A DNA stretch of 47,423 nucleotides from NCBI GenBank assembly GCA_964541815.1, contig CAZIRI010000002.1, positions 21,074 through 68,496 on the forward strand. Direction: 5' to 3'. Both the position numbers and the translations under genes were made by a program. The DNA is from an uncultured Lachnospiraceae bacterium (GTDB taxonomy: Bacteria; Bacillota; Clostridia; Christensenellales; UBA1242). The notes below the pieces were generated by a model. That model did not search any database. It saw nothing but the letters and a program-made list of their open reading frames with translations, and had not been told where the DNA came from. This document shows positions 1-880 of the stretch, piece after piece. Every line of letters starts with the position of its first letter. The first letter of the stretch is position 1.

Positions 1-880
1 TCCCTTTTTCTTCATATCCGTCTTCACCTTCCGCATTTTCAACCATGTATCCGCCTGAGACTTTGATATTTAGGCTTGGCAAAACATTCACTTGTGCAAC
101 ATCATAAACAACCCCGATATCTTCACTTCTGTTTGAATGATTGTAGTATGCAAGCACAGTAAATTCACTGACAAGGTCAAGTTTCTTTGGCTCTTCACTG
201 CCATAATATGCTTGCAAAATATTCCCTTCATCAGTCAAAGTCAAGGTCACTTTATCAAATGGAACAATATCCAAAGATTCTTCACCTATTCCGTCATTAA
301 ATTTTGCAACATCACCGTCAACACTTGTCAATTTGTAGTTGTTGAAATTGATATCAATTGTGTTGTCAACAATATAATAAGACATATCTTTTTCGGTTGT
401 GTTGCTGTCAAACATAAAATTCTCTGCCATTGGAACAAAAGGTGTGTCATTTGACACATACAAAACATTCCCCTTGTCAAACGAAACGGATTTTGCATAT
501 TGTTTCACTTTCACAAAAATTTCGCAAGTCTTTTGTGCTTCAAGAGTTGAAACTTTGAGTGTCGCATTTCCACCGTGTTGTGCTGTCACAGTGAGTTTTA
601 TTTTGTCATTTGACAGATATTTGACTGAACAATCGCAAATTTCTTCTTGTTCATCACTTTGTGGGTCGACCTGAATTGCATTGTTAAACCCTTTTTGATA
701 GTTGTTTATAGTTATCACAACCTCTTTCGACTCACCAACTTCAAGTTCAACCGATGTTTCACTTGCTGAAAGTGAAATTTTGTCATATTTGACATCACAA
801 CCAGAGAAAAAGAAACCCGCAAACAAAAATGCAAGCATTCCAAGAACTATAAATAATGTATTTTTCCTACTTTTTGTCAT
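1..880 (-). CDS. 5' part of a large lipoprotein (open for 293 codons to the window edge); N-terminus resembles the 6545 aa giant lipoprotein
   Basis: Hand translation from ATG at 880 (SD AAGGA): MTKSRKNTLFIVLGMLAFLFAGFFFSG-C-DVKYDKISLSASETSVELEVGESKEVVITINNYQKGFNNAIQV...QHGGNATLKVSTLEAQKTCEIFVKVKQYAKSVSF...GEDGYEEKG, with no stop before base 1. Basic N-region, hydrophobic core and lipobox-like FSG-C. Absent from the ORF track because it has no stop in the window. Confidence 0.9.
   Translation of the reverse strand, partial: MTKSRKNTLFIVLGMLAFLFAGFFFSGCDVKYDKISLSASETSVELEVGESKEVVITINNYQKGFNNAIQVDPQSDEQEEICDCSVKYLSNDKIKLTVTAQHGGNATLKVSTLEAQKTCEIFVKVKQYAKSVSFDKGNVLYVSNDTPFVPMAENFMFDSNTTEKDMSYYIVDNTIDINFNNYKLTSVDGDVAKFNDGIGEESLDIVPFDKVTLTLTDEGNILQAYYGSEEPKKLDLVSEFTVLAYYNHSNRSEDIGVVYDVAQVNVLPSLNIKVSGGYMVENAEGEDGYEEKG

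Follow-up and report, generated by a model that had tools for sequence, protein, structure and literature searches.

The window analysed here is a stretch of 47,423 nucleotides of contig CAZIRI010000002.1 (assembly GCA_964541815.1) from an uncultured Lachnospiraceae bacterium that GTDB places in Christensenellales. At its left edge lies the beginning of a gene for a giant lipoprotein, G2, which stands directly downstream of a gene for a VirB4-type ATPase, and a second and larger giant lipoprotein, G1, is encoded on the same strand. The original prediction, made from the letters of the window, held that G2 and G1 belong to a family of long lipoproteins with an immunoglobulin (Ig)-like first domain next to the membrane, and that this domain could act as a recognition or assembly tag for the adjacent ATPase. 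In our analysis the left-edge open reading frame (ORF) turned out to encode the first part of a surface lipoprotein with 3,510 residues, a paralogue of the 6,545-residue G1. The features on which the following account depends are these, with AF2 standing for AlphaFold2, pLDDT for its per-residue confidence and HMM for hidden Markov model:

1..880, minus strand: 5' end of the G2 gene, codons 1-293 of a giant lipoprotein gene, the remainder lying beyond the left edge of the window
797..880, minus strand: predicted signal peptide and lipobox of G2 (residues 1-28, FFSG-C, Cys28), from reading of the sequence
491..796, minus strand: D1, the predicted first Ig-like domain of G2 (residues 29 to ~130) and shared N-terminal module, from AF2, Foldseek and profiles
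71..487, minus strand: D2, the predicted second beta-sandwich of G2 (residues ~132-270), from AF2 with pLDDT mostly >90
881..907, minus strand: spacer of 27 nt between the ATPase stop and the G2 start, with the ribosome-binding site AAAGGA, from reading of the sequence
908..3613, minus strand: VirB4-type ATPase, 901 aa, with an N-terminal transmembrane hairpin, from Pfam, NCBIfam and PDB 4AG5
17150..36787, minus strand: G1, giant lipoprotein of 6,545 aa and paralogue of G2, from the ORF and the lipobox LTA-C
36383..36718, minus strand: first domain of G1 (residues 24 to ~135), remote homologue of G2 D1, from Smith-Waterman, HMM and hhalign
27248..29674, minus strand: core of G1 (residues 2372-3180), a predicted parallel beta-helix, from BLASTP to G2 residues 2500-3224

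The left-edge gene and the lipoprotein signals

On the minus strand of the window (880..1) the G2 frame was open over 293 codons from an ATG at 880, and its product begins with MTKSRKNTLFIVLGMLAFLFAGFFFSGC. It was indeed absent from the ORF track, for the simple reason that the track omits reading frames cut off by an edge. The suspicion that this gene may itself be a second giant was confirmed by extending it beyond the window. A lookup of public assemblies with the exact ATPase sequence gave contigs of the same species (L001-L006, >99.4% nucleotide identity over 3.6 kb), in which the frame did not end shortly past the edge and remained open through all of the at least 3,324 codons present. 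The gene was called at 3,510 aa (Met1) or at 3,496 aa (alternative start Met15) in these contigs, and a full-length G2 of 3,510 aa (P0001) was found in the representative library with 100% identity over residues 29-293. Gene callers were thus split over the start (window 838-880, minus strand); the positively charged n-region expected of a signal peptide is present only in the Met1 form.

Lipoprotein signals were read by eye and with a regular expression as [LVI][ASTVI][GAS]-C after a charged n-region and a hydrophobic h-region, and both giants carry one. The G2 signal reads MTKSRKN-TLFIVLGMLAFLFAGFF-FSG-C28, in which a charged n-region is followed by a hydrophobic core. The phenylalanine at position -3 is non-canonical; F or I is kept at this position in all orthologues, with the motif [FI][VAS]G-C at the same place in about 40 of them. 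G1 begins with MKKIAYIFVGILMMLGGVTLTAC, and its signal, MKK-IAYIFVGILMMLGGVT-LTA-C23, ends in a canonical lipobox at Cys23. The lipobox was kept in about 40 G2 and 10 G1 orthologues. Both proteins are therefore predicted to be lipoproteins, that is, substrates of Lgt and LspA, the genes of which (lgt and lspA) are not in the window.

Homology between the two giants

The main homology between G2 and G1 was found in a central core of about 800 aa, some 2,400 residues downstream, and not at the N-terminus; the original prediction had overlooked it. BLASTP aligned residues 2500-3224 of G2 with residues 2372-3180 of G1 (E 5e-48, 28% identity over 862 columns), and the core was found in 32/32 G2 orthologues tested. 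This alignment identifies G2 and G1 as paralogues, and in view of this paralogy it is far more plausible that their N-terminal ends descend from one ancestor than that they converged. The AF2 model of the core consisted of short, evenly spaced strands in a solenoid-like arrangement (mean pLDDT 64). Foldseek matched it to PL6 lyases (E 1.3e-5) and further to BACOVA_03286, Ag43, the L. reuteri serine-rich-repeat protein SRRP and the beta-helix part of the S. pneumoniae IgA1 protease, all with low TM-scores (0.15-0.24); a profile of the core returned only noise from the PDB sequences. With moderate confidence, the core is most likely a right-handed parallel beta-helix. It resembles the beta-helix of streptococcal IgA1 (M26/Zmp-type) proteases and BACOVA_03286, with a Foldseek probability of 1.00 over about 410-460 columns of a model of moderate confidence, but it differs from IgA1 proteases in that the Pfam GLUG and M26 models were undetected in the giants and no metalloprotease domain was found. 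Its recurrent motifs D-I-x-L ... F-x-G-x-F-D-G-N-G-x-x-I and A-G-G-(L/I)-V-G are, we presume, reminiscent of GLUG-type repeats, a likeness with support at the fold level only.

Two further stretches of note were observed elsewhere in G1. Residues 4027-4035 (window 24683-24709, minus strand) are encoded by nine threonine codons in a row, (ACA/ACG)x9; the tract is trinucleotide-like, and slippage could alter its length while the frame stays intact. Near the C-terminus (residues ~6260-6370, window ~17700-18000, minus strand) is a glycine-rich stretch with up to 35% Gly per 60-residue window (GGNGDDGYAGG..., GGGAGGHAG..., GGNGGAGS).

The first domains were also alike. The peptide blocks quoted in the original prediction were exact, CDVKYDKISLSASETSVEL at residues 28-46 and GGNATLKVSTLEAQKTCEIFVKVKQYAKSVSF at residues 103-134 of G2, CDKKVSLSVSTQSVEL at residues 23-38 and SGDAIVKVSSLEDSSQFELISVKVYTGVESFS at residues 103-134 of G1, and lie at matching distances from the lipobox Cys. 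When the G2 fragment was compared with the whole of G1 by BLASTP, the top segment pair joined the two N-terminal ends, with 30.4 bits, an E of 8e-4 and 26% identity in an alignment of 144 columns that takes in the signal peptides. Without signal peptides the Smith-Waterman score was 68, compared with 34.5 ± 6.5 for residue shuffles, and it was reached by 0 and 3 of 5,000 shuffles, so that the alignment stood above the shuffled controls that had been proposed as a check. The N-terminal window came first among 322 windows of G1 and 161 windows of the other protein, with the runners-up close at 58 and 63. In the single pair the likeness is thus marginal.

Could the likeness be no more than that of unrelated lipoproteins which each carry a generic Big_2-type Ig domain, the match being inflated by signal peptides and strand composition? 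The pairwise E of only 8e-4, which includes the signal peptide, speaks for this explanation, as do the next-best windows (58-63 vs 67-68) and the scattered weak matches of individual family members to Big_2, Big_3_5 and CARDB. In addition, HMMs of the G2 and G3 families gave no match on G1 at E<=10, and phmmer with G2 over 1.84 billion representatives found no member of the 6-kaa G1 family. However, the comparison of family profiles gave a different picture. The orthologue profiles of the two first domains were aligned by hhalign with a probability of 92% (E 6.6e-7), and an independent alignment of the first domains gave 85% (6.4e-6). An HMM of the G1-family first domain, another check that had been proposed, matched the G2 fragment with 23.5-28.3 bits (about 1e-7 to 1e-8; 28.3 bits corresponds to 1.7e-8); the next best of the 237 six-frame ORFs of the window reached 5 bits, and the maximum over internal segments of 77 giants (297,276 residues) was 10.7 bits. 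When the G2-family profile was slid along the first 2,400 aligned residues of the G1 family, the first 110-residue window was the best of 42 (P 1e-5), about 100-fold ahead of the runner-up (1e-3). Furthermore, the Ig-like domain starts 2-6 residues past the lipobox Cys in both families, and the two proteins are paralogous elsewhere. We therefore consider the generic-domain explanation improbable. In our reading the first domains of G1 and G2 are genuine, if distant, homologues, and their relationship is tied to the place directly behind the lipid anchor. None of the 911-, 602- and 221-aa lipoproteins of the window carries the module when tested for it.

The Ig-like nature of the first domain, as originally proposed, was borne out by modelling. 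The AF2 model of G2 residues 29-293, built from a 27-member family alignment, had a mean pLDDT of 91.6 and a pTM (predicted TM-score) of 0.79, and comprised two tandem beta-sandwiches (about 1-100 and 104-240 in mature numbering). D1 had eight strands with a block pLDDT of 91-98, and D2 contains the conserved motif YVSN.T.F.P...F.FD.NTT (alignment A4). Foldseek matched the model to the tandem Ig domains of NCAM, titin, ICAM-1 and SbsC (E 5e-7 to 3e-5, probability 1.00), and the G2-family profile matched the Ig-like domains of the S-layer protein SbsC (E 1.5e-5). The two blocks that had been noted stand out in a diverged domain because one of them corresponds to the opening strand of the D1 sandwich (ISLS) and the other to its two closing strands (ATLKVSTL / CEIFVKVKQ). 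D1 is thus like the bacterial Ig-like domains in fold class (Big_2/Big_3; SbsC, PDB 4UJ7/4UIC), but it differs from Big_2 and Big_3 in its invariable place just behind the lipobox and in making up a separate sequence family, below the Pfam thresholds. No Pfam Ig family reached threshold for the window sequence, membership of Big_2 (PF02368) and Big_3 included; among 22 family members run on Pfam, one matched Big_2 (7.8e-4) and two Big_3_5, none of them shown above threshold.

Word-indexed homologue searches with the G2 fragment and the G1 N-terminus gave no relatives. Such searches evidently miss these proteins, because an exhaustive search of the 1.84 billion representatives later found 74 clusters at 50% identity for the G2 family. 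In 69 of the 74 clusters the members are lipoproteins that match at about residues 30-290, and the other five are unrelated, with generic Ig repeats. Complete members have 3,312-3,677 aa, the short ones being contig fragments, and nearly all come from Christensenellales-like gut metagenome-assembled genomes (MAGs). Long lipoproteins that share a conserved domain directly behind the lipobox Cys do therefore form a real family, as proposed. Over 19 full-length members, identity to the G2 of the window averaged 35% (D1 40%, D2 32%, core 46%). The first 500 residues of G1, used as a query of the genome collection, gave no relative; G1 orthologues were recovered with a profile of the shared core, have 6,071-6,523+ aa and lie in the synteny M23-ACP-spoIIID-G1-radC (ACP, acyl carrier protein). 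Some other giants, L134 (6,562 aa), L102 (6,225 aa), L097/L104 (5,193-5,622 aa) and L098, have the shared core and more divergent N-terminal domains. L134 and L136 were matched by both first-domain HMMs and may be evolutionary intermediates between the families.

The VirB4-type ATPase and its pairing with G2

The ATPase scored 66.5 bits against Pfam P-loop_TraG (cutoff 25.8) and 546.2 bits against the NCBIfam equivalog model NF045975 VirB4_plasma, which describes the Mbov_0397 ATPase of an integrative conjugative element (ICE). The latter alignment joins residues 5-897 with model positions 3-892 of 894, and its score is below the cutoff of 590. The C-terminal 420 residues matched the Thermoanaerobacter VirB4 domain (PDB 4AG5, E 2.4e-45), and Walker A (GKSGSGKS, residue 513) and Walker B (VVAVDE, residue 770) were both intact, indicating that the protein is a true VirB4 homologue. 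By hydropathy, its sole hydrophobic stretch is the hairpin at about residues 20-62, in which about five residues make up the outer loop; presumably this hairpin resembles that of VirB3-VirB4 fusions. The likeness to the VirB4 of Gram-positive type IV secretion systems (T4SS) extends to the aligned C-terminal part and both Walker motifs, but unlike in those systems the VirB4 of the window appears as an orphan. To our knowledge, VirB4 normally occurs only within complete type IV systems.

The spacer of 27 nt between the ATPase and G2 leaves no room for a terminator, which makes co-transcription of the two genes probable. With the ATPase as query, 80 loci were collected from uncultured gut Clostridia labelled Christensenella, Catabacter, 'Ca. 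Caccovivens', 'Ca. Coproplasma' and similar. The order ATPase-G2 was kept in every locus with enough sequence and an ATPase at least 64% identical, and adjacency was seen at about 37 loci in one survey and 15 in another. Among more distant relatives of the ATPase (47-49% identical) the next gene encodes a protein of 1,071-1,937 aa, and in L062 (~41%) one of 2,029 aa, unannotated or DUF285-bearing; the pattern 'VirB4, then large surface protein' may extend more widely. We rejected the possibility that the giant takes the slot of a T4SS cell-wall hydrolase: no hydrolase domain was found in the giants, and the genes 3' of the ATPase in distant relatives are unannotated or encode Ig-like/DUF285 surface proteins.

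The genes of the window are ordered M23 peptidase, ACP, spoIIID, G1, radC, uvrB, a 911-aa lipoprotein, uvrA, MBL, a lipoprotein, hflX, DUF1858, an unknown gene, the ATPase and G2. The segments from hflX to the ATPase and from M23 to G1 recur in relatives, in which rpoB-rpoC follow the giant. G1 is separated from the ATPase by 13.5 kb and has a syntenically conserved place behind spoIIID, and G1, G2 and the ATPase are kept within one syntenic block of ~37 kb. This arrangement bears on the possibility that the genes for the ATPase and G2 came in as cargo of an integrated conjugative element or are what is left of one, in which case their pairing would reflect mobile-element structure rather than a host function. 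The best family match of the ATPase is indeed the VirB4 model of mycoplasma ICEs, and relatives of 40-44% identity are found in many Firmicutes at loci with different gene order and flanks, which were taken to be ICE-like from different, small downstream genes and not from annotation. However, the score stays under the NCBIfam cutoff, and relaxase, VirD4, VirB6 and recombinase were undetected among the window proteins with Pfam and NCBIfam, nor was a repeat boundary found in the window. With these models the window showed no complete ICE or T4SS with co-located VirD4, VirB6-like channel, cell-wall hydrolase, relaxase and recombinase, its M23 peptidase being part of the conserved M23-ACP-spoIIID block. 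Neither the 47 kb of the window nor flanks of 10 kb in relatives yielded any other T4SS component. The pair is bordered by housekeeping genes (hflX-uvrA-uvrB and rpoB-rpoC), and their order is kept across species with 64-77% identical ATPases. A mobile-element origin of the pairing is therefore very unlikely, and the ATPase-G2 locus belongs to the core chromosome, not to an integrated element.

The proposal that D1 is a tag by which the adjacent VirB4-like ATPase selects and handles giant lipoproteins fared poorly. It would fit the tight spacing and conserved adjacency of the ATPase and G2, the common ~37-kb block, and the slightly higher conservation of D1 compared with the regions next to it (40% vs 26-32%). 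On the other side, the ATPase is cytoplasmic apart from its single membrane hairpin, the short outer loop of which (about five residues) gives a folded domain on the outside almost nothing to bind, whereas D1 folds outside the membrane after Sec export. G1 carries the remote module (its D1 is ~26% identical to that of G2) and has no ATPase gene adjacent to it. In a sister clade the giant keeps both D1 and its place before rpoB without an upstream ATPase gene. Conservation of the module is moderate, 40% vs 46% for the core. The known substrates of T4SS are brought in by the coupling protein VirD4 and bear their signals at the C-terminus or internally; the window has no detected VirD4. Because of topology, G1, the sister clade and moderate conservation, a direct tag role has only a slight chance of being right. 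With low confidence, we regard the Ig domain as a structural anchor or spacer and not as a tag read by the ATPase.

Proposed architecture, known systems and neighbouring genes

Taken together, these data make it rather likely that G1 and G2 are paralogous giant lipoproteins with a lipid anchor, an Ig-like base and a beta-helix core, G2 being paired with a VirB4 ATPase; our confidence in a coupling of the two is low. In the common plan, a Sec/Lsp-type signal peptide would end at the lipobox Cys and be followed 2-6 residues later by an Ig-like beta-sandwich, then by a second sandwich (modelled in G2) and thousands of residues without a recognisable domain, and finally by the shared beta-helix core of ~800 residues and a variable C-terminal part. 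After Sec export the protein would be held by its acylated Cys in the outer leaflet of the cytoplasmic membrane. A long stalk crossing the wall would have the conserved Ig-like domains as its membrane-proximal base and would display the beta-helix region outward. G1 and G2 may thus be giant adhesin- or fibril-like surface proteins. The ATPase and G2 might work together in contact-dependent transfer or in building a surface structure, which we suggest with low confidence.

Several observations weigh against this account or parts of it. The first-domain homology of G1 and G2 is remote, and its detection by HMM succeeded in one direction only. The core model is of moderate confidence, with 252 residues below a pLDDT of 50, and Pfam returned no family for either full giant, nor for the core and C-terminal part at E<=10. 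In the sister clade, whose ATPase is about 58% identical, the giant stands before rpoB and the ATPase gene elsewhere. There the ATPase (L037/L040) precedes a 1,044-aa secreted protein with Big_13/Ig-like domains, and in the sister-clade locus L119 263-13120 the giant precedes rpoB-rpoC and has as its upstream gene one for a 1,001-aa protein with no Pfam match that is unlike the ATPase. Adjacency is all that links the ATPase to the giant, the adhesin role is read from architecture only, and all organisms concerned are uncultured MAGs. The 1,001-aa protein of L119 has an N-terminal Gly-rich stretch comparable with that of G1.

Giant surface proteins account for a large part of small genomes, and as a rule they determine what a cell adheres to. 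Giant Ig-like and beta-solenoid surface proteins are already known as a kind; what is new here is an unannotated family with a fixed lipobox and Ig-like N-terminal module and a conserved pairing with an orphan chromosomal VirB4. Giant1-5 of Apilactobacillus kunkeei are very large extracellular surface proteins of 3,000-8,000 aa (PMC12863079). G1 and G2 are similar to them in being neighbouring multi-thousand-residue surface proteins of a small genome, predicted to be elongated and to have a beta-solenoid, and with paralogues sharing domains. A likeness to serine-rich-repeat adhesins is given by L. reuteri SRRP among the fold matches of the core. However, G1 and G2 differ from both groups: their predicted anchor is an N-terminal lipid and not a cell-wall or other anchor, their predicted beta-helix lies ~2,400 residues in and is not N-terminal, there is no detectable sequence similarity or Pfam domain, and G2 is probably co-operonic with a VirB4 ATPase.

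A second comparison is with mycoplasma ICEs. Transfer of ICEA needs both CDS17 (VirB4) and the surface lipoprotein CDS14, which was proposed to promote contact between donor and recipient (PMC6030558). The window resembles this pair (CDS17, VirB4/TraE, with CDS14) in having a VirB4 ATPase beside a surface lipoprotein and a full-length match to the VirB4 model. However, no DDE recombinase, VirD4 (CDS5) or other ICE gene was detected, the locus is fixed in the core chromosome, G2 has several thousand residues, the hosts are walled Clostridia, and the comparison with CDS14 is one of proposed role. One could imagine that the orphan chromosomal VirB4 and G2 form a minimal domesticated contact machine without the remaining T4SS, which walled Firmicutes would use for a host function along the same lines as CDS17 and CDS14 in mycoplasmas. 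The giant would then touch a cell or substrate, with the ATPase as the motor for moving DNA or protein across or for assembling a fibre. We think this doubtful. In the literature we found nothing relevant on the G2 family, on the pairing of VirB4 with a giant lipoprotein or on the biology of 'Caccovivens'.

The giants of uncultured gut Clostridia are unannotated, and Pfam is silent across about 10,000 residues of those studied here; the lipobox with its Ig-like module and the beta-helix core could be used for the annotation of MAGs. A conserved, probable operon with a lone VirB4 in the core chromosome is unusual. If the pair works together, a conjugation motor would have been recruited for another surface function, which would offer a handle on cell-cell contact by uncultured host-associated bacteria.

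Some neighbouring genes deserve mention. One of them directly precedes the ATPase gene across the clade:

3878..4507, minus strand: soluble protein of ~203-209 aa and of unknown function

Its synteny was traced by tblastn in L007-L069, and it has no Pfam or NCBIfam match. The gene for the DUF1858 protein (71 aa, 4614-4829, plus strand) is the only probable plus-strand gene of the window and was called in 6/6 same-species contigs. An 86-aa ORF at 4508-4768 (minus strand) overlaps it and is probably spurious, its tblastn 'conservation' arising because it is antisense of the DUF1858 gene.

The 911-aa lipoprotein between uvrB and uvrA (10530-13265, minus strand; lipobox LSAG-C) has a weak Big_3 match at residues 45-125 and five '(N/T)W(E/Q/R)I' motifs at 320, 497, 544, 702 and 862, an indication that the protein has five repeated modules. 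Among the same-species strains L001-L006 this lipoprotein varies in length (910-916 aa). Directly upstream of G1 (37057-38298, minus strand) are spoIIID, an ACP-like ORF and a membrane-anchored M23 peptidase (37690-38298), which form a conserved M23-ACP-spoIIID block; this order is kept upstream of G1 in all G1 orthologues. SpoIIID scored 85.9 bits against TIGR02844, below the cutoff of 111.5. The pairing of M23 with spoIIID is presumably akin to spoIIQ-spoIIID of other Clostridia, which raises the question of G1 expression during sporulation.

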